Source: Promethearchaeota archaeon (lineage in GTDB: Archaea; Asgardarchaeota; Lokiarchaeia; Sigyniarchaeales; SOKP01). Taken from it: a stretch of DNA of 15,567 nucleotides. A model generated the notes under the pieces. It made no database searches, was not told the origin of the DNA, and saw only the letters and a list, made by a program, of their open reading frames with translations. Within the stretch, counting starts at the first letter, position 1. Every line of letters begins with the position of its first letter. This document shows, piece by piece, positions 1,471 to 15,567 of the stretch. A program made the translations under genes and the position numbers. The stretch spans positions 1 through 15,567 of the forward strand of contig JBHLME010000108.1 in NCBI GenBank assembly GCA_048938445.1, in the 5' to 3' direction.

Positions 1471-2011
1471 TGCTCTCAAGGAAATTGTAAAAGTTGTAAG
1501 TGATGAATTAATCATATGTAATATAGGCATTCCTTCTAAAGAGCTCTATGATTTAAAAGACCGCGATGAAAATTTCTACATGCTGGGTTCAATGGGACTT
1601 GCCTCTTCTATAGCCTTAGGCGTCGCTTTAGCAAGACCTAAAAAAAGAGTGTGGTGTATTGACGGAGACGGTTCAATATTGATGAATCTGGGGAGCTTGA
1701 GTACTATTGGCAATCATGCTCCTAATAATCTAATGTTAATAGTTATCGATAATGGATGTTATGGCTCAACAGGTAATCAGCAAACCCATACATGTAATAG
1801 AACTCAATTGGACGTGATCGCCAAAGGGGCTGGTTTTGAATCAATTCATACGATTGATGATAAGGTAGAAATTATACCGAAGTTGAAAAAACTTGGTTCA
1901 GGGAGTCATTTCATCCTTATCAAAACGGAGCCTGGAAATGCTCAAGTAAAAAATATACCCTTGCATCCCATACAAATAAAAGAGCGATTCATGAAATCTC
2001 TTACTAAATGA
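1457..2011 (+). CDS. comE: Sulfopyruvate decarboxylase subunit beta (ThDP-binding PP domain)
   Basis: N-terminal MKRYDAL, CNIGIPSKEL, NFYMLGSMGLASSIALGVAL and the ThDP motif GDGSILMN...IDNGCYGSTGNQ. Overlaps the comD end. ATG at 1457 preferred over TTG 1451; a GGGGGTG RBS-like run lies at about 1443-1449. Confidence 0.88.
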   Translation: MKRYDALKEIVKVVSDELIICNIGIPSKELYDLKDRDENFYMLGSMGLASSIALGVALARPKKRVWCIDGDGSILMNLGSLSTIGNHAPNNLMLIVIDNGCYGSTGNQQTHTCNRTQLDVIAKGAGFESIHTIDDKVEIIPKLKKLGSGSHFILIKTEPGNAQVKNIPLHPIQIKERFMKSLTK

Positions 2012-2135
2012 TTAGCAGTAAGAAGAATTTCATTTCTAATTATGAATATAGACCTTTTTAGGATCTTAACATTTAATATGAATTGAATATAAGTTACTTT
2101 TTTATATATCATTGATTAAAATGTAAATAACTAAA

Positions 2136-2141
2136 AGGTGA
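2136..2141 (+). promoter_or_regulatory. Archaeal-type ribosome binding site AGGTGA
   Basis: AGGTGA ends 6 nt before the ATG at 2148. Confidence 0.6.
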
Positions 2142-2147
2142 AATTAC

Positions 2148-4424
2148 ATGAATAGAGTGAAAAAAATCATTGTTATTTTATCATTACTCTCAATATTGAG
2201 TTTTTCTAGTTTATTTAAGATTATTACTATTAATAGTGGGGGAACCAATGAATATTCTGAAAATAAGGAACTCGATTTGCATCCTTCGGGATTTTTCAAC
2301 TTGACAGGAGGCAAAATATTCATAGATGATATGAATTCGTCATGTAATTGGGACGAAACAGTAAAAAATGACTGGTGTAGTGGAGAGGGAAGTATTGACA
2401 ATCCTTATGTCATTCAGGACGTGTTTTTGGATGGCAATGGTTCCGACACTTGTGTCGAGATTCAAAATTCAAGAGCCTATTTTAAGATTGAAAGTTGTAA
2501 CTTTTCAAATGCAGGAATAGGAATTAAAATTGAAAATTGTACAGACTTTAAGATTATTGATAATAGTATTTCAGACTTAAAAGGAAAAGATGGTTTATCT
2601 GGTTTAGAGAGTAGTCTTGGAATAAATGGAGAAAACGGAGACGAAGTTTTTGGGATTTTTATAAATAATTCTAATAATATACACCTTTCATTAAATGAAA
2701 TTTGTAATATTGAGGGAGGTATGGGTGGTTATGGAAAAAACGGAACCAGTTCAAGAGAAACAGGTGGAAATGGTGGCAATGGATCGAGTTCATATGGACT
2801 TTTAATAAACAATACAGTGAATGTGTTTGTTGCTCATAATAAAATCTCAAATATCATAGGGGGAAAAGGAGGTGATGGAGGGAATGCCTGGATATCAGAT
2901 GGTATGACTTATTCAGCAGGGTATATAGCAGATGGTGGCATTGGAGGTTGTGGTGGAAATAGCATTGGACTCCATTTTGATAATACTATGAATATTATGA
3001 CTTATAAAAATGAATTGAGCGGAATTACTGGAGGTTCAGGAGGAATAGGTGGATCTGGAGGGTATTGTTTTTCAATTTCGGGATCTATTATTTCCGCACG
3101 TTTAGATAATGCTGGAAATGGAGGACCAGGGGGAAATAGTAAGGGAATATGCTATCATAATTCTATTAAAATTAATACAATCTTAAACGAAATTTTTGAT
3201 ATTATAGGTGGTAATGGGAATAATGGAGGTCTGGAAAGCTTTTTTGTGCACGTGTTGCTTCCTGATAAAGGAATACAAATCGGTGGAATTGGTGGTAACG
3301 GAGGTTTAGGTGGCTTGAGTTCAGGTATTTTTTATAGTAATGCTAATATTATTAAAAATATCGATAATCAAATATATAGGATTAAAGGAGGCATTGGTGG
3401 AGCTGGTGGGAACGGAGGATTTGGTGGAGAGGAAATGATTAGTATTCTCCCAGGTCCTGTTTATATAGAGTTATCTTGTAAAAATGGTGGAGATGGTGGG
3501 AAAGGTGGTGAGTGTTATGGGATTTGTTTTAATAATTCAATGAATATTGAAAACTATTGGAATAAAATTGAAAATATTGAAGGTGGTGGTGGAAATATGG
3601 GGGGGAATGGTTGTGTTGGTTATATAAATGAAATTTGGGTCATGGATATGCTCATTATGATCGAAGAATATGATGGTGGAAATGGAGGAAATGGCAGTGA
3701 TGGAGGAATGAGTATGGGATTATACTTTCAAAATTCACAAAATATCATCAATATTGGAAATGATATCTTAAATGTTTTAAGTAATAGAGGAGGAAATGGT
3801 GGCGATGGAGGGGATGGCGCTTATTTTAATAGAACTAATGGTGGGAATGGAGGAAATGGCGGAAATGGAGGTTGCAGTTTTGGATTATATTTTGAAATAT
3901 TAAAAAACAGCACGAATATAATGAATGTTTTATCTTTCATTATTGGTGGTGATAGTGGATACGGTGGGTTGAAAGGAATTGGAATCATTAACGGAATTGA
4001 TGGAAATAATGGAATAATAGGGAGTGGTTATGGATTTTCACTCGTGAACACGAATGATAGTCTTAGCTGGTTCAATGCTATCTATTGTGAAAATAATGTG
4101 GATAATGGGATAAATAACCGCTGGAATAGTTTTATATGTGGTAATTATTGGTCAGGGTATGATGGTGTCGATTTGAATAGAGATGGTATAGGCGATACAC
4201 CGTACCTGCTTAATGGCAGTGCTGGATCTCAGGATTATTTACCTTTAATGTTCTGGCCAATAGATGATTCATCTTTACCTAAAAATCCATTGCAGGATTT
4301 AGCGATTTGGATCATTCTTGGAATAGCATCCATAGGAGGCACAGTAGTTATTTCAGGAGTCGTGGTTTCAAGAAGAAAAAAAGCAAGAAAAAAAGGATAC
4401 TGGCTCTCTAAATTAAAAAAATAA
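2148..4424 (+). CDS. Secreted, C-terminally membrane-anchored right-handed beta-helix (NosD/CASH-like) surface protein with glycine-rich inserts
   Basis: Basic-hydrophobic signal peptide (MNRVKKIIVILSLLSILSF), G.GSIDNPYVIQD cap and beta-helix rungs (GI.I.N...I..N.I). Also a NosD-type C-terminal motif (GNYWSGYDGVDLNRDGIGDTPY...DYLPL), a TM helix LAIWIILGIASIGGTVVISGVVV and a basic tail RRKKARKK. Confidence 0.8.
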   Translation: MNRVKKIIVILSLLSILSFSSLFKIITINSGGTNEYSENKELDLHPSGFFNLTGGKIFIDDMNSSCNWDETVKNDWCSGEGSIDNPYVIQDVFLDGNGSDTCVEIQNSRAYFKIESCNFSNAGIGIKIENCTDFKIIDNSISDLKGKDGLSGLESSLGINGENGDEVFGIFINNSNNIHLSLNEICNIEGGMGGYGKNGTSSRETGGNGGNGSSSYGLLINNTVNVFVAHNKISNIIGGKGGDGGNAWISDGMTYSAGYIADGGIGGCGGNSIGLHFDNTMNIMTYKNELSGITGGSGGIGGSGGYCFSISGSIISARLDNAGNGGPGGNSKGICYHNSIKINTILNEIFDIIGGNGNNGGLESFFVHVLLPDKGIQIGGIGGNGGLGGLSSGIFYSNANIIKNIDNQIYRIKGGIGGAGGNGGFGGEEMISILPGPVYIELSCKNGGDGGKGGECYGICFNNSMNIENYWNKIENIEGGGGNMGGNGCVGYINEIWVMDMLIMIEEYDGGNGGNGSDGGMSMGLYFQNSQNIINIGNDILNVLSNRGGNGGDGGDGAYFNRTNGGNGGNGGNGGCSFGLYFEILKNSTNIMNVLSFIIGGDSGYGGLKGIGIINGIDGNNGIIGSGYGFSLVNTNDSLSWFNAIYCENNVDNGINNRWNSFICGNYWSGYDGVDLNRDGIGDTPYLLNGSAGSQDYLPLMFWPIDDSSLPKNPLQDLAIWIILGIASIGGTVVISGVVVSRRKKARKKGYWLSKLKK
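2562..4073 (+). repeat. Nine imperfect protein-level tandem repeats (about 44-66 aa): N-x-I-x-x-I-x-GGxGGxGG-[variable]-GGxGGxGG-S-x-G-[ILF]-x-[FY]-x-N
   Basis: Units begin at NSISD, NEICN, NKISN, NELSG, NEIFD, NQIYR, NKIEN, NDILN and NVLSF in the translation. GGAAATGG/GGTGG-rich DNA. Confidence 0.8.
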
Positions 4425-11069: not shown

Positions 11070-13235
11070 ATGGCAAGGAAACGAAAAGTTGAAGAAACTA
11101 AACCATCAAAACCATCCAAAACAATGGGATGGGATGATGAAGATAAAGATGAAGCATTAGAAGCAGAAGGACTAAAAAGTATCGATATGGATAAAGGCTA
11201 CGTAGAACTTGTAGATAGAGATACATCAACACCATATATTGAAACTTATGATGAAAAAACAGGAGAAGTAGAAGGTAAAATCTTACTAAAAAATGGAAAT
11301 AGACGTGGAAAATTAGCTTTAGTTAAAATAATAGAACAAGTTGATGTTAAGCAAGATCATGAGGCAAATATCGATAGTATTGGTTTTTCAGGTAAATTGA
11401 ATGTGGAAAATCCTAGCACTGTTGATAGAATTTGGGATATTGACATCACTCTCAAAAATACTAGTGAAACAAATCTTAAATCAGATCAGATTAAGATAAG
11501 GGAATTAGGTACAGATAAGGATAATAATGTTGATTCGAGGGAATTTAAAATTACTGGAGAAGCTAAGAACCTTCTCTTAGTAAAGGAATATATTAATACC
11601 TTATCTAATGCTGAAGATGTATTAAATATTCATGATATTGAAAGAGATCTACTTAAATTACAGGATCATACAGCAAGCACTACGACAATCGAAGAAGAAG
11701 AGGAAGAAGAAGAGGAGGATGAGGACGAAGAATATGAAGGTGGTGCTGAAGCTTTGGAGTCATATGGTATTTCCATTGATAAAGAGAATACAGTTACCTT
11801 TGCAATTGCAACAAGAAGTTTATTTGAGAAACCCATTGCAAATGTAAAAGTAATTAAGACCATACCTAGCGAATTTTCAAATGTATCCATTAAAGACACT
11901 ACAGTTGGAAGAGCTGAACGTTCTGGTGATGAAGTCATATGGACGATTGATAGAATGGACCCAAATAATACTGAATTATTGACTTTCACGGCAACAATTT
12001 TAGTGAGCTCTATAGAATCAGTAAAAACGGGAACAATCGAAGTCATGTATGAGGCCTCTTCTTCATTTTCGGGTGGTTTAGATATAGATAAATTTGATGC
12101 ATATACTCGAAATAAATTTTACGTAGATATCATTGAACGAGATGAAGAACCTGAAGTATGGGATTGCAAGTTGGTATTTGAAAATAGTTCAGAATTCATC
12201 ATAGAGCTTTTCAATGCTGATGTATATTCTCCAGACGATAAATCAACAAAACTCGTCGATATCGATCCGAAAGATGTTCCTCGTTTACCCGCAGGAGCTC
12301 AATTTCATTCTAATCCATGGATGGTTGAGTCTGAAGATTATCCTAGTTTTATGAAGAAATTAGAATTTCGAGTAATGCCAAACTTCATGACAATTGTAAA
12401 TGGTAGCATCGCTATTACTGATGTAGAATTATCAATTGCAAGCATAACTAGCGATGCTATATTTAGTCTTTCAGAATTAGAACCGGGAGCAGCAAGAGCA
12501 GGATTAGAAGATCTTCTTCAAGTTCCAACCTTCAAAAAGACCGATGTGTATGCTTCAGTTAAGATTGAAAATAATGGTTCAGCACCATTGAATGAAGTAT
12601 CAATTAAACATCAATACTATTCTGATGAGTATAAACCTCCATCATTAAATGAAATTAAACTCTTTTTGGACGACAATGAAGTAGATTTAGAAGGGGGCGC
12701 TGTAGATGTTGAAAATGACATCCTTACTATTTCTCTTAAAGATCTAAAAGACAGTAGTACAGGAATGTTTAAGCCCAAATCTACATTAGAGGTAATATAT
12801 CCAATTCATTGCGTAAAACCAAGTAAAGATGCAAGGTTTGAATCTGAAGTCATATGTTTAGCTAATACTTATCCTTTAAGTAATGAATTAGAATCCAGAC
12901 CAGAAGTTCCAATTATCGAAGCAGTCCATCTACGTCGTAAATTCCGCGTTGGTAAAGAGGTCATTGCTATTGGCTCTTTAGGTGAGTATGAGATAATATT
13001 ATCCATTGAAAATATTGGTGACATGACACTACAGAATCTTGTCTTGCTTGATAAGGTTCCAGATAGTTTTGAATACGGAGATTATAGCACTGAACCTGAA
13101 ATAACTGATGAAGTGGGTGAGGATACTCTTAAATGGTCTATTGATGAGCTTGCTGAAGGTGAGAAATTAGAAATAACTTACAAAATCACAGGTTCTGGTG
13201 AATATAGTCCTAGTGACGCGCAATTGTCTTATTAA
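11070..13235 (+). CDS. Acidic cytoplasmic beta-sandwich protein: probable mu-homology domain (adaptin mu/delta-COP/muniscin-like) followed by additional Ig-like (DUF11-like) modules
   Basis: 721 aa, no signal peptide or TM helix. MHD-like segments LVKIIEQVDV...IGFSGKLNVEN, IANVKVIKTIP...TTVGRAERSGDEVIWTIDRM and IEVMYEASSSFSGGLDI. C-terminal IENIG...NLVLLDKVP..F...LKWSIDEL..GEKLEITY. The CDS is certain; the product is inferred. Confidence 0.55.
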   Translation: MARKRKVEETKPSKPSKTMGWDDEDKDEALEAEGLKSIDMDKGYVELVDRDTSTPYIETYDEKTGEVEGKILLKNGNRRGKLALVKIIEQVDVKQDHEANIDSIGFSGKLNVENPSTVDRIWDIDITLKNTSETNLKSDQIKIRELGTDKDNNVDSREFKITGEAKNLLLVKEYINTLSNAEDVLNIHDIERDLLKLQDHTASTTTIEEEEEEEEEDEDEEYEGGAEALESYGISIDKENTVTFAIATRSLFEKPIANVKVIKTIPSEFSNVSIKDTTVGRAERSGDEVIWTIDRMDPNNTELLTFTATILVSSIESVKTGTIEVMYEASSSFSGGLDIDKFDAYTRNKFYVDIIERDEEPEVWDCKLVFENSSEFIIELFNADVYSPDDKSTKLVDIDPKDVPRLPAGAQFHSNPWMVESEDYPSFMKKLEFRVMPNFMTIVNGSIAITDVELSIASITSDAIFSLSELEPGAARAGLEDLLQVPTFKKTDVYASVKIENNGSAPLNEVSIKHQYYSDEYKPPSLNEIKLFLDDNEVDLEGGAVDVENDILTISLKDLKDSSTGMFKPKSTLEVIYPIHCVKPSKDARFESEVICLANTYPLSNELESRPEVPIIEAVHLRRKFRVGKEVIAIGSLGEYEIILSIENIGDMTLQNLVLLDKVPDSFEYGDYSTEPEITDEVGEDTLKWSIDELAEGEKLEITYKITGSGEYSPSDAQLSY
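11691..11738 (+). repeat. GAR-rich low-complexity tract encoding EEEEEEEEEDEDEEYE
   Basis: gaagaagaagaggaagaagaagaggaggatgaggacgaagaatatgaa, in frame (aa 208-223). Confidence 0.9.
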
Positions 13236-13244
13236 TCTTAATTA

Positions 13245-13277
13245 AATTTTTCATTTTTTTTTATTATTTATTTTTAT
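13245..13277 (+). terminator. Putative archaeal oligo-T terminator
   Basis: Several T runs (up to 9 T) starting about 10 nt after the stop of the 721-aa gene. Confidence 0.45.
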
Positions 13278-13369
13278 TGTTAAAATGATTGATTTAAATA
13301 AGCGAAAATCTTTGATTTATATAATGATTAAAAAAAATCATTCAATTTTCTTATAATAATATCATTGAG

Positions 13370-15016
13370 ATGACAATTAGAAAAAGATTTCATCAAGATT
13401 GGATATTTAAATGCCCCGATGCGGTCTTGACATGTTCTATATTAAAATGTAAAGATGAATCTTTCATAGTATTTGGTGGACATGATAAAAAACTATACCT
13501 AATGGATAAAGATAGAAATATTATAGATCAAGTCGTTTTTGATGGTTGGTGCAGGTGCACTTATTGCAAAGATATAACTGGTGATGGATGTGATGAAATA
13601 TTAGTTGGATCTGGAGATGGAAGTTGTTTGGTATTAAAATTTGATCAAATAACTAAAAAATTAATTAACCTAAAGCATTATAAAGGGGAAGAAAAGGTTA
13701 ATTGTTGTATTGCAGGAGATTTGTATAGAAAAGGGGTCATTAATTTAATATATGGGGGTGAGGATGACACTCTTAAAATCTTCAATACCTTAGCATCAAC
13801 TAAACCCGATTCTATTTTTTATTTTGATTCTTGGGTAATGAGTGTTGATTTTGGCTTCTTTAAATTACCTGAATTTTCGGAACAAATACTTGGATTAATA
13901 ACTGGAACAAAGAATGGTCATGTATATTTTATAGCATTTAATGAGGATAAACCAGGAATCTTATGGCAAAAAAACCTATATTCTCAAATTAATGACATTA
14001 AAATTGGAGATGTCTCAAATGATGGTTATAATGAAATTATTGCATGTACAAATGATTCCTATGTTAAAATCATGAATAGTGTTGGTAAAAAATTACATTT
14101 TATATACATAGAAGAAAGTCGTCCAGTTTCACTTTTAATTGATGATATTGATGGAAATAATGCAAATGAGATAATTGTTGGATGTGCAGATGGTTCTTTG
14201 AGAGTTTATGAAAATATTAATTTAAATTCACTTGATTTTCAGCTTAAATGGAAGTCTAAAATTCGTACTTCTATAAAAAATATTTGCTCTTATAAGATAA
14301 AAGGAGAAGAGGTTAAATCTGTCCTTTTTGGAGGTTATGATAGAACAATTAGAAAAATTAATGATTTTGAATGGGGTCAAAAACAAAAAATAAACATACC
14401 TAAAAGAAAAGTTCCCGATAAAATAAAAATTAAAGTAGAAAAGGCTGAAAATGAAGAATTATCTGAAGTACCTATGAATCTAAGAGAATATATCTTTAAG
14501 ATTATAAAATATCAAAAAATTTTAGGTTCTTTAGAAATTTTAAAAGAAGAATTACTCAAAATTGGATATTCTAAAATAGAAATTGAAGAAGAATTAGAAT
14601 ATTTGAAAAGTAGTGGATTGATTGTTTATGAAAAATATAATAATCCTGTATATTTTTTAAATGAAAAAAAACTTATCTCCCAAGAATATCACACTGAATC
14701 TAATGAAGAAATGGAAGAATATATCAATGAAAGAGTCTCTGAACTTGAGACAGGAGAAATTCCTGAAAAATCAACCATTATCGAAAAAAAAAATGATAAA
14801 AATGATTATGCTGAATTAAATTCAATATTAAAAAATATTATAATTGAATACCTGAAAGAGAAAAAGATAATTAATTCAAAGTCGGATTTTATCAAGGATA
14901 TATCAAAAATGGGATTTTCAGAGGAAAAAATAGAACAAAAAATAAATTCAATGAAAGAAAATGGAATAATTAAATATTCACGTTCTGTTCCTCGAGGATG
15001 GAGCTTAGTTTCCTAA
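13370..15016 (+). CDS. Beta-propeller (FG-GAP/WD40-like; BBS2/ITFG2-type blades) with two C-terminal winged-helix-like domains
   Basis: About seven blades: VFGGHDKKLYL, DITGDGCDEILVGSGDG, GDLYRKGVINLIYGGEDDTLKIF, LITGTKNGHVYF, GDVSNDGYNEIIACTNDSYVKI, DDIDGNNANEIIVGCADGSLRVY, VLFGGYDRTIRK. A Lys-rich linker follows, then two similar helical units (GYSKIEIEEELEYLKSSGLIVY; GFSEEKIEQKINSMKENGIIKY). No signal peptide. Confidence 0.7.
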   Translation: MTIRKRFHQDWIFKCPDAVLTCSILKCKDESFIVFGGHDKKLYLMDKDRNIIDQVVFDGWCRCTYCKDITGDGCDEILVGSGDGSCLVLKFDQITKKLINLKHYKGEEKVNCCIAGDLYRKGVINLIYGGEDDTLKIFNTLASTKPDSIFYFDSWVMSVDFGFFKLPEFSEQILGLITGTKNGHVYFIAFNEDKPGILWQKNLYSQINDIKIGDVSNDGYNEIIACTNDSYVKIMNSVGKKLHFIYIEESRPVSLLIDDIDGNNANEIIVGCADGSLRVYENINLNSLDFQLKWKSKIRTSIKNICSYKIKGEEVKSVLFGGYDRTIRKINDFEWGQKQKINIPKRKVPDKIKIKVEKAENEELSEVPMNLREYIFKIIKYQKILGSLEILKEELLKIGYSKIEIEEELEYLKSSGLIVYEKYNNPVYFLNEKKLISQEYHTESNEEMEEYINERVSELETGEIPEKSTIIEKKNDKNDYAELNSILKNIIIEYLKEKKIINSKSDFIKDISKMGFSEEKIEQKINSMKENGIIKYSRSVPRGWSLVS

Positions 15017-15480
15017 TTTGCTGCTTCTACTTTTTCAATATCAAAATATTTGATTATATCTACTTGAAATTCTTGAAATTGATTTACTTCACAGAAATCT
15101 CTACCATTATATCTTTGAATAAAAAGTTGTAGAAGGGGTTCAATTTTTTCTAAAAATTTTTTAACCGTTTTATCTACTTTTTTTTGTTTTGATTTAGATA
15201 CTAACCCATATAAAATAATGGGTTCTATGTTAATACTGTCCATACTTTTAACACTCGCCATTTTAAATATGAAAAGAGTAGTGCCTGATTCTAAATATTC
15301 TAATGAAGTGTTCGTAAAAGCAGATTCAGCAAAAGAACTAATCGCTGATACGAAAGCTCCTCTAAGATCCTTATGTTTTCCAGCAATCGTAACCGCAGAG
15401 TCTTTGGGCAATTTCTTAAAAATGTAGTTGATGATTACAAATCCTCTAAACACTATTCCAATTTCATAGAGTTGTTTCAT
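15013..15480 (-). CDS. Stand-alone longin-like domain protein (sigma-adaptin/sedlin/TRAPP-like; Asgard eukaryotic-signature type)
   Basis: Longin beta-beta-alpha-beta-beta-beta-alpha-alpha pattern: LYEIGIVFRGFVIINY, DLRGAFVSAISSFAESAF, LEYLESGTTLFIF, IILYGLV, FLEKIEPLLQLFIQRY and FQEFQVDII. RBS GTGAGGA at 15491-15497 (minus strand). Start is ATG 15480 or TTG 15483. Confidence 0.68.
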   Translation of the reverse strand: MKQLYEIGIVFRGFVIINYIFKKLPKDSAVTIAGKHKDLRGAFVSAISSFAESAFTNTSLEYLESGTTLFIFKMASVKSMDSINIEPIILYGLVSKSKQKKVDKTVKKFLEKIEPLLQLFIQRYNGRDFCEVNQFQEFQVDIIKYFDIEKVEAAN

Positions 15481-15567
15481 CAAGATACAATCCTCACTTT
15501 ACATAACTATAGGTAAGGTACTATTCCTTTAGTGAAATTTTGACCCTTATCAATTCTTAATTTTACT

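Follow-up and report, generated by a model that had tools for sequence, protein, structure and literature searches.

Does the row of three genes that closes a contig of the Promethearchaeota archaeon assembly GCA_048938445.1 encode a minimal adaptor or coat complex? The window, by which we mean the whole stretch of DNA analyzed, is the entire 15,567-bp contig (JBHLME010000108.1; C23 of genome G000), and nothing follows its longin gene in this assembly. It comes from a metagenome-assembled genome (MAG) of 4.6 Mb that is 96.5% complete with 8.2% contamination, and the NCBI labels on close homologues of its proteins include Promethearchaeota and Lokiarchaeota. A preliminary description had proposed that the three genes, for a mu-homology-domain (MHD) protein, a propeller protein and a longin protein, specify such a complex, in which a coat-like propeller accompanies a longin and an MHD that are still separate polypeptides, a state preceding their fusion in mu subunits and delta-COP. 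The MHD is the part of clathrin and COPI adaptors that reads sorting signals, and its origin bears on how vesicle traffic arose. We find that the MHD of the first protein, P0001, as judged from sequence profiles and a predicted structure, is a true homologue of the AP mu, delta-COP and muniscin domain and not just a likeness of fold, and that, in one Lokiarchaeia-type family, the MHD gene shares its inheritance and its losses with the propeller gene at a single fixed site. The longin gene, on the other hand, seems to be part of the conserved backbone of the neighborhood.

The three open reading frames (ORFs) lie where they had first been placed, as the ORF list and translations confirm. P0001 (721 aa, MHD plus Ig domains; 11070..13235, + strand) was characterized from its ORF, translation and AlphaFold2 (AF2) model; P0002 (548 aa, FG-GAP beta-propeller plus two winged-helix-like repeats; 13370..15016, + strand) from its ORF and from Pfam and profile searches; and P0003 (a free-standing longin-fold protein; 15013..15483, − strand) from its ORF, AF2 model and VIA structure comparison. 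P0003 comprises 156 aa if translation starts at a TTG and 155 aa if it starts at the following ATG, the form found in the database, and its gene is, again as first described, convergent to the propeller gene, which it overlaps by 4 bp at its 3′ end. The prediction that all three proteins are soluble also held, with a Kyte-Doolittle maximum over a 19-residue window of ≤1.3 in each, as computed by a simple hydropathy script that is cruder than a dedicated predictor. By composition, the N-termini of P0001 and P0002 are charged, and P0001 is highly acidic overall (151 Asp + Glu versus 78 Lys + Arg).

Structure comparison, both by VIA and in the wide search, together with profile A3 places a complete MHD with both lobes at aa 78–451 of P0001 (11301..12422, + strand). 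In the AF2 model, which was built from 36 sequences (mean predicted local distance difference test, pLDDT, 74.4), two beta-sandwich lobes are interleaved, with lobe B inside lobe A, in an arrangement that superposes on solved MHDs. VIA re-alignment ranked mu2 first (Z 18.8, root-mean-square deviation (rmsd) 2.9 Å, 224 of 245 residues, model 78–451 on mu2 168–435), followed by mu4 (Z 16.8), mu1 (16.7), mu3 (16.4) and delta-COP (15.9). A Foldseek-independent search of 48,161 representative chains again returned mu2 first (Z 17.7), then mu4, mu3, mu1 and delta-COP, and lower down SGIP1 (Z 14.2), yeast delta-COP (14.0) and Syp1 (13.2), while Foldseek aligned the C-terminal domains of AP2 mu2 at TM-scores of 0.64–0.74 (normalized to mu2). 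The whole two-lobed domain of the AP-1 to AP-4 mu subunits, delta-COP and SGIP1/Syp1 therefore superposes on P0001 (Z 18.8–13.2; the MHD structures likened are PDB 5wrk, 4mdr, 4ikn, 1w63, 4o8q, 5awr and 3g9h), and the matches by sequence profile are weak but exclusive. Profile A3, which covers the MHD region alone of 24 diverse relatives at a mean column identity of 26%, gave 27 matches in the PDB at E ≤ 10, every one of them a mu1/2/3 or delta-COP chain; the best were AP-3 mu (1.1e-4) and delta-COP (4.9e-3 over profile positions 3–195). The MHD call of the preliminary description was thus right and, with a whole domain found, can be put more strongly than the “MHD-like motifs” of its wording.

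Lobe B (aa ~238–346; 11781..12107, + strand) is the site of two overlapping Pfam matches, one to DUF11 (E 5e-11 at aa 238–318), the sole family above its cut-off in P0001, and one below threshold to Adap_comp_sub (PF00928; E 3.9e-6 at aa 238–346, profile positions 123–237 only). Across the family, PF00928 matches 18 of 36 members at E ≤ 0.01, with a best value of 1.2e-8, and it is precomputed on many close P0001 homologues. A match to nothing but generic DUF11 domains had been named at the outset as telling against the proposed adaptor locus; a DUF11 match does exist, but it spans just one lobe of a true MHD. An MHD profile run against 1.84 billion representatives gave 3,252 matches at E ≤ 1e-3 and 263 at E ≤ 1e-30, which we read from the best 150 of the 3,252, without names. 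Among these 150 are proteins of 2,200–6,300 aa (P0362–P0364 and others) that align in 11–40 separate stretches to profile positions ~95–208. Such giants are presumably DUF11-repeat proteins, in which case lobe B would be related in sequence to the DUF11 repeat, as the overlap of DUF11 and PF00928 in P0001 also indicates; a kinship of this kind suggests how the MHD may have been built.

Outside the MHD, P0001 departs from its eukaryotic counterparts. The AP mu subunits and delta-COP carry an N-terminal longin fused to the MHD, and the muniscins SGIP1 and Syp1 carry an F-BAR domain, whereas P0001 has neither; in the AF2 model the residues preceding its MHD (aa 1–77; 11070..11300, + strand) are short and poorly structured (pLDDT 30–58) and contain no longin, and many of their columns are near-invariant among close orthologues. 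Relative to eukaryotic MHD proteins, this 77-residue extension is an addition, as are a poly-Glu acidic insertion within the MHD (aa ~207–232; 11688..11765, + strand; read from the sequence and disordered in the model, with pLDDT <50 at 208–226) and two C-terminal Ig-like domains. The first of these, a pilin/CnaB-like domain (aa ~457–620; 12438..12929, + strand), superposes by VIA on RrgB (Z 14.4, rmsd 3.0 Å, 149 residues) and in the VIA wide search is also similar to SpaD and other pilins; the second, a C-terminal beta-sandwich (aa ~623–721; 12936..13232, + strand), superposes on a carbohydrate-binding module (VIA Z 10.5, 96 residues), with pLDDT of 72–86 across aa 621–720.

We searched 151 sampled Asgard genomes with each of the three proteins, 26 of them from the GTDB family of the window (f1, with the source genome included) and 125 from elsewhere. 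P0001-like proteins occur in 113 of the 151 at E ≤ 1e-10, among them 89 of the 125 outside f1, which makes the MHD+Ig family near-universal, not sparse, in the sampled Asgard genomes; at E ≤ 1e-3, P0001 itself has 366 homologues, of which the top 120 are all at least 59% identical. Eighteen relatives from other families (581–768 aa) lack the long N-terminus, reaching the MHD within the first 31 residues in 13 cases and after 50–153 residues in the other five. Beyond the close orthologues, the 77-residue extension and poly-Glu insert are features of one paralogue and of two sister families, and no Asgard MHD examined here has a fused longin. Twenty of the profile matches were looked up, of which 7 clusters bore a taxon-bearing name. 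One match, P0500 (687 aa; cluster labels Euryarchaeota TMED192 and Thalassarchaeaceae), covers the full domain at E 1.3e-53, shares 309 aligned columns with the Asgard MHD profile (hhalign probability 99.9%) and has relatives in 7 MAGs whose titles name Euryarchaeota, Methanobacteriota or Thermoplasmatota (L051–L057). Because full-domain relatives occur in euryarchaeal MAGs, the MHD family is not confined to Asgard archaea, and its presence in marine Euryarchaeota weakens the MHD as an Asgard-plus-eukaryote signature.

Adaptor-like domains had been reported in Asgards before, as the preliminary description stated: in the portion of Eme et al. 2023 (Nature 618:992; PMC10307638) that concerns AP domains, PF00928 is listed and the domains are called sparsely distributed and “not fused to each other.” The PF00928 proteins of that study probably belong to the same family as P0001, which, in contrast to the sparse distribution given in that portion of the article (PMC10307638), extends here to 113 of 151 Asgard genomes and to Euryarchaeota and Thermoplasmatota MAGs. 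P0001 is accordingly a further member of a published, widespread archaeal MHD+Ig family, in which the MHD is a whole domain and not a fragment. Elsewhere, the relevant excerpt of Koestlbacher et al. 2026 mentions adaptor homologues only as patchy, and the corresponding excerpts of Liu et al. 2020 and of the ESCRT preprint treat adaptin appendage domains, not the MHD. The literature that we found on delta-COP, FCHo, stonin, muniscins and TSET draws no Asgard link, and we found no publication that describes an MHD–propeller gene pair or euryarchaeal relatives, a search in which the Greek letter mu is unsearchable, such that an earlier description may have been missed.

P0002, the partner encoded downstream, consists of a propeller (aa 1–~345) followed by winged-helix-like repeats at aa ~356–445 and ~471–548. 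The propeller had been correctly recognized: against a cut-off of 27 bits each, Beta-prop_BBS7 (PF23743) scores 64.2, Itfg2 (PF15907) 37.5 and BBS2_Mid (PF14783) 36.7 bits; all six main propeller Pfam models match 33 of 33 P0002 relatives; and the family profile A4 retrieves human ITFG2 from the PDB at E 7e-12, followed by BBS2 (0.017) and BBS7 (0.034). Structural neighbors in the Atlas are propellers over aa 1–340 and include bacterial and other archaeal FG-GAP/PQQ propellers. What P0002 has in common with ITFG2 and with BBS2/BBS7 is an FG-GAP seven-blade-type propeller; its C-terminus differs, since BBS2/7 end in coiled-coil, GAE and platform regions and P0002 instead in two winged-helix-like repeats, and no BBS2_GAE or platform model of Pfam matched P0002 or its family, which leaves it without the C-terminus of a BBSome subunit by this search. 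The last 190 residues are a tandem duplication with a unit of ~70 aa (blastp E 1e-6), and their winged-helix likeness is weak (RPA32 winged helix at E 0.15; 3 of 33 members matched by MCM winged-helix models of Pfam). At 548 aa, P0002 is longer than the human ITFG2 chains of the PDB (447–466 residues), and ITFG2, a KICSTOR protein that pairs with KPTN, is not known to contain winged helices. A winged-helix DNA-binding regulator with a propeller sensor is a further conceivable reading of P0002, for or against which nothing observed speaks. The BBS7/ITFG2 cluster is already catalogued as an Asgard eukaryotic signature protein in the portion of a 2026 structural-clustering preprint that bears on it (bioRxiv 10.64898/2026.10.28.762692), which is the only Asgard literature on ITFG2, BBS7, KICSTOR or the BBSome that our search returned.

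For P0003, the fold was settled by the VIA search, because sequence methods and Foldseek gave no answer. Longin-type Pfam models matched none of 36 family members at E ≤ 1, no PDB entry naming its family was matched by sequence or profile, and Foldseek against the PDB returned a mix of sigma, LAMTOR and delta-COP chains at E ~2e-3 and TM-scores of 0.36–0.5. The AF2 model (mean pLDDT 76.9, predicted TM-score 0.74) has the beta-beta-alpha-beta-beta-beta-alpha-alpha topology of a longin, and the VIA wide search returned the Sec22b longin (Z 11.2), VAMP7 (11.0), the AP2 mu2 N-domain (10.7) and Lokiarchaeota 8yqg (10.0), with ranks 1–33 all recognized by name as longin-domain proteins; the longin call made from the sequence was therefore sound. 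The same topology is shared, at Z 11.2–8.1 over 112–138 residues, with Sec22b, VAMP7, AP mu and sigma, TRAPP synbindin and sedlin, Mon1-Ccz1 and the Lokiarchaeota Roadblock-Longin 8yqg. Sigma chains reached Z 9.2–10.0, at or below the longins of SNAREs, mu subunits and TRAPP, and a sigma/zeta subtype (PF01217, Clat_adaptor_s) was indicated neither by a sequence match nor by structural preference. P0003 differs from known longins in belonging to no sequence family and in being detected, with this query, only within one GTDB family; at E ≤ 1e-5 it had relatives in 0 of the 125 genomes outside f1.

The distribution of the three genes within f1 separates the longin from the other two. A longin orthologue is present in 26 of 26 f1 genomes and a propeller orthologue in 19 of 26; an MHD orthologue accompanies the propeller in 17 of those 19, counting one genome (G138) that has fragments only, and in the remaining two the propeller gene is cut by a contig end. 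Among the seven f1 genomes without a propeller, an MHD orthologue was found in none. We fetched 20 f1 loci and clustered their ORFs, 13 of which, with the window, make 14 complete loci. The order glycerate-kinase-like gene, MHD gene, propeller gene and convergent longin gene holds in 14 of 14, with two extra genes between the glycerate-kinase-like and MHD genes in the window, and the order of the last three recurs in G077, in which a contig end cuts the MHD gene. In all 14 of the complete loci the propeller–longin gap lies between −113 and +19 bp, and the MHD–propeller spacer measures 128 to 171 bp (14 of 14 loci measured). Across genera the MHD proteins are 61–65% identical and the propeller proteins 44–51%. 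The row set out in the preliminary description is thus conserved within part of one family, but neither partner gene adjoins the MHD homologue in the 20 loci fetched outside f1.

Where the pair is missing, the longin gene remains. It directly follows the same glycerate-kinase-like gene in five of six fetched cassette-free loci (two whole genera plus G144), and no MHD or propeller remnant was detected by tblastn in the three cassette-free loci checked. Because the longin is kept beside the same upstream gene with or without the cassette, its adjacency looks like inherited local synteny. Single-gene trees of the glycerate-kinase-like and longin proteins, which are poorly resolved and midpoint-rooted, require 2–3 gains or losses of the cassette and do not separate the cassette-free G144 from cassette-bearing genomes. 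The sole exception to joint presence in complete loci is G138, which retains the last 46 codons of the MHD gene before an intact propeller gene; there the ORF clustered as longin lies 674 bp from the propeller, and tblastn places a closer longin copy ~140 bp away. The other conserved f1 neighbors are metabolic (an MBL-fold hydrolase, a ferredoxin, C_GCAxxG proteins, a CoA transferase and a CoA ligase).

Two further features of these loci were noted in passing. At the G138 locus (L020, G138:C25, 34–8157), a CARDB/Ig-repeat ORF of 1,925 aa stands ahead of the MHD remnant and the longin gene occurs as a tandem duplicate, which could reflect either a real rearrangement or an assembly artefact. In the cassette-free genus g4, a Pfam scan of locus L023 shows the longin gene divergently adjacent to a gene for a 334-aa Ras/Roc/Arf/Rag/Gtr1-like GTPase (L023:10348–11352), and cluster-mates of that GTPase adjoin the longin in two other g4 loci (L024 and L026).

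MHD genes also occur in other surroundings. Directly upstream of the MHD+Ig gene in 7 of 20 distant loci (L031, L034, L035, L037, L038, L046 and L049) is a co-directional gene for an MBL-fold hydrolase of 229–267 aa. The closest paralogue in the source genome (C105, 844–5013; L027) encodes 793 aa with 52% identity to P0001 and the N-terminal extension; a TrkA-N gene lies nearby, and a convergent Roadblock/LC7 (MP1-like) gene stands two genes away, echoing the MHD/longin layout of the window, a proximity that may be due to chance in a genome rich in such genes. A second paralogue (C48, 9078–13983; L029:4079–8983), of 606 aa up to the contig end and 28% identity, lies 35 bp behind co-directional CheW-CheY-CheA genes, a placement that could mean a link between one family branch and chemotaxis-type signaling. 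The paralogue on C177 neighbors genes for a coiled-coil protein and a peptidase. In the euryarchaeal locus L051, a Pfam scan shows genes for an EMC3/YidC-like insertase, cytidylate kinase and Cbf5 following directly on the MHD homologue, with a GPN-loop GTPase gene on the opposite strand upstream of the homologue; ORFs of the same sizes lie downstream of the MHD homologue in the other six euryarchaeal loci.

We consider it rather probable that the locus carries a lineage-restricted cytosolic module of two proteins, MHD and propeller, beside which the longin is a local neighbor; the joint inheritance of the pair is shown, its function inferred. Co-inheritance of the two genes suggests that P0001 and P0002 act jointly, most likely as a cytosolic scaffold for protein–protein recognition, in which the MHD and Ig domains would grip short motifs or partner proteins and the propeller–winged-helix protein would supply a second interaction platform. 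Longins often work with small GTPases, and P0003 would more probably work with other partners of that sort. In an ITFG2/BBS-like propeller, the archaeal MHD has in one lineage a steady partner, which makes the two a concrete pair for bench work.

Several observations weigh against this view of the locus. The PF00928 score of P0001 (26.8 bits) is below the gathering cut-off (31.6), the structure of its MHD is a predicted model, and residues 348–433 of that model are of low confidence (pLDDT 41–58). The f1 genomes are related and thus not independent samples, and co-inheritance among them may stem from a DNA segment that was inserted once and deleted a few times, with no selection for a joint function. 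In the A+T-rich spacer of 134 bp between the MHD and propeller genes (13236..13369, read directly from the sequence), the stop codon is followed by a run of T, and a TTTATATA-like box lies ~45 bp ahead of the next ATG; in DNA of ~30% G+C these could act as a terminator and a TATA-like promoter element, and a spacer of this length and content allows the two genes to be transcribed separately. In 20 distant Asgard MHD loci outside f1, neither the longin profile nor P0002 nor the propeller profile found a matching ORF, and the three P0001 paralogues of the source genome each have other neighbors; because no propeller stands beside these distant homologues or paralogues, the pairing does not characterize the MHD family overall. 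Finally, the distance from the 3′ end of the longin gene to the propeller gene stays between −113 and +19 bp in the 14 complete loci, which leaves room for a functional link of the longin with its neighbor.

On the first alternative, which we think somewhat unlikely, the three genes are functionally unrelated, and MHD and propeller travel together merely as one arriving or deleted DNA segment. It fits the confinement of the pairing to part of one family, the spacer with its possible terminator and promoter signals, and the different placement of other MHD members, next to an MBL-fold hydrolase, CheW-CheY-CheA or an EMC3/YidC-like insertase. It accounts less readily for the conservation of both proteins across genera or for order, orientation and spacing that are constant in every complete locus, and in none of these, save that of G138, does either orthologue stand intact and alone.

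The adaptor or coat model with which we began fares worse, and we regard it as improbable. All three folds that it invokes are real, the propeller gene has the longin gene as its immediate neighbor in each of the 19 genomes that carry a propeller orthologue, the Asgard MHDs examined lack a fused longin, and a Roadblock/LC7 gene lies convergent to the C105 paralogue two genes off. AP complexes combine longin, MHD and propeller-bearing subunits. So does TSET, in the part of its published description that we draw on, and AP domains in Asgards are unfused in the corresponding part of Eme et al. 2023 (PMC10307638). However, the evidence of context ties the MHD to the propeller and not to the longin: the latter is kept at the same site in the 7 of 26 f1 genomes that lack both other genes, its relatives appear in none of the 125 genomes outside f1 as against MHD relatives in 89 of 125, and no longin adjoins the MHD homologues of 20 distant Asgard or 7 euryarchaeal loci. 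P0003, moreover, matches no sigma/zeta or other longin Pfam model and ties structurally with SNARE, TRAPP and Mon1-Ccz1 longins. The idea of a split mu subunit beside its longin at this locus is therefore removed as unsupported.

The data show no AP/COPI-like heterotetramer or membrane coat. No adaptin-trunk (large-subunit) or sigma-type candidate was present among the conserved neighbor clusters that were Pfam-scanned in 20 related loci, nor is the cassette accompanied by a GTPase gene, and the four matches to Adaptin_N (PF01602) in the source genome, one frame of which scored above the cut-off, are of generic HEAT type, the model also matching a Methanosarcina control. PF01217 matched nothing in the source genome and likewise nothing in any of 14 control genomes, such that this search is uninformative. 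As first stated, Pfam assigned neither a solenoid nor a small-GTPase family to the ten further ORFs of the window. In AP complexes it is the large subunits, and not the attached MHD, that hold the mu longin; adjacency by itself therefore predicts no longin–MHD interface. A three-chain complex prediction (P0001 1–452, P0002 1–350 and the longin), run with our own alignments on chains from which the Ig part of P0001 and the winged-helix part of P0002 had been cut, scored 0.00 against a mark of 0.32, a value that lies outside the calibration and has no bearing on binding.

An extension of the two-protein module is a long shot: MHD+Ig and propeller–winged-helix proteins could form a cytosolic cargo-recognition complex that is recruited to membranes via the neighboring longin and a small GTPase. 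If so, it would be a living prokaryotic assembly joining the cargo-binding domain of AP and COPI complexes to a propeller of the BBSome/KICSTOR type, and a direct experimental model for the beginnings of adaptor–coat machinery. Scarcely credible, finally, is the reading of P0001 as a common DUF11-type Ig-repeat protein of the cell surface or S-layer, with an MHD likeness that reflects generic beta-sandwiches; DUF11 as its sole Pfam family above cut-off, the DUF11 labels of its Atlas look-alikes, the giant multi-repeat proteins that lead the profile search via the lobe-B region, and the integrin legs and streptococcal adhesins among its Foldseek matches all point that way, but we reject it because P0001 has no signal peptide or hydrophobic segment, the integrin and streptococcal antigen I/II alignments are poor (TM-scores 0.11–0.38, rmsd 7–42 Å) where mu2 fits at 2.9 Å across an interleaved two-lobe domain, and A3 retrieves only MHD proteins from the PDB.

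The rest of the window is of a different character. Its ten further ORFs encode the halves of a TPP enzyme, a nitroreductase, two flavoproteins, a ferredoxin and the glycerate-kinase-like DUF4147/MOFRL protein, or are unassigned. One ORF of 758 aa without a Pfam family (2148–4424, + strand) begins with a hydrophobic leader, continues in long Gly/Asn-rich GGxGG repeats that probably form a beta-helix, and ends in a basic-tailed membrane anchor, features that make it a likely surface protein; owing to this repeat ORF, GC skew is extreme (0.37–0.58) at 2001–4000 of the window.

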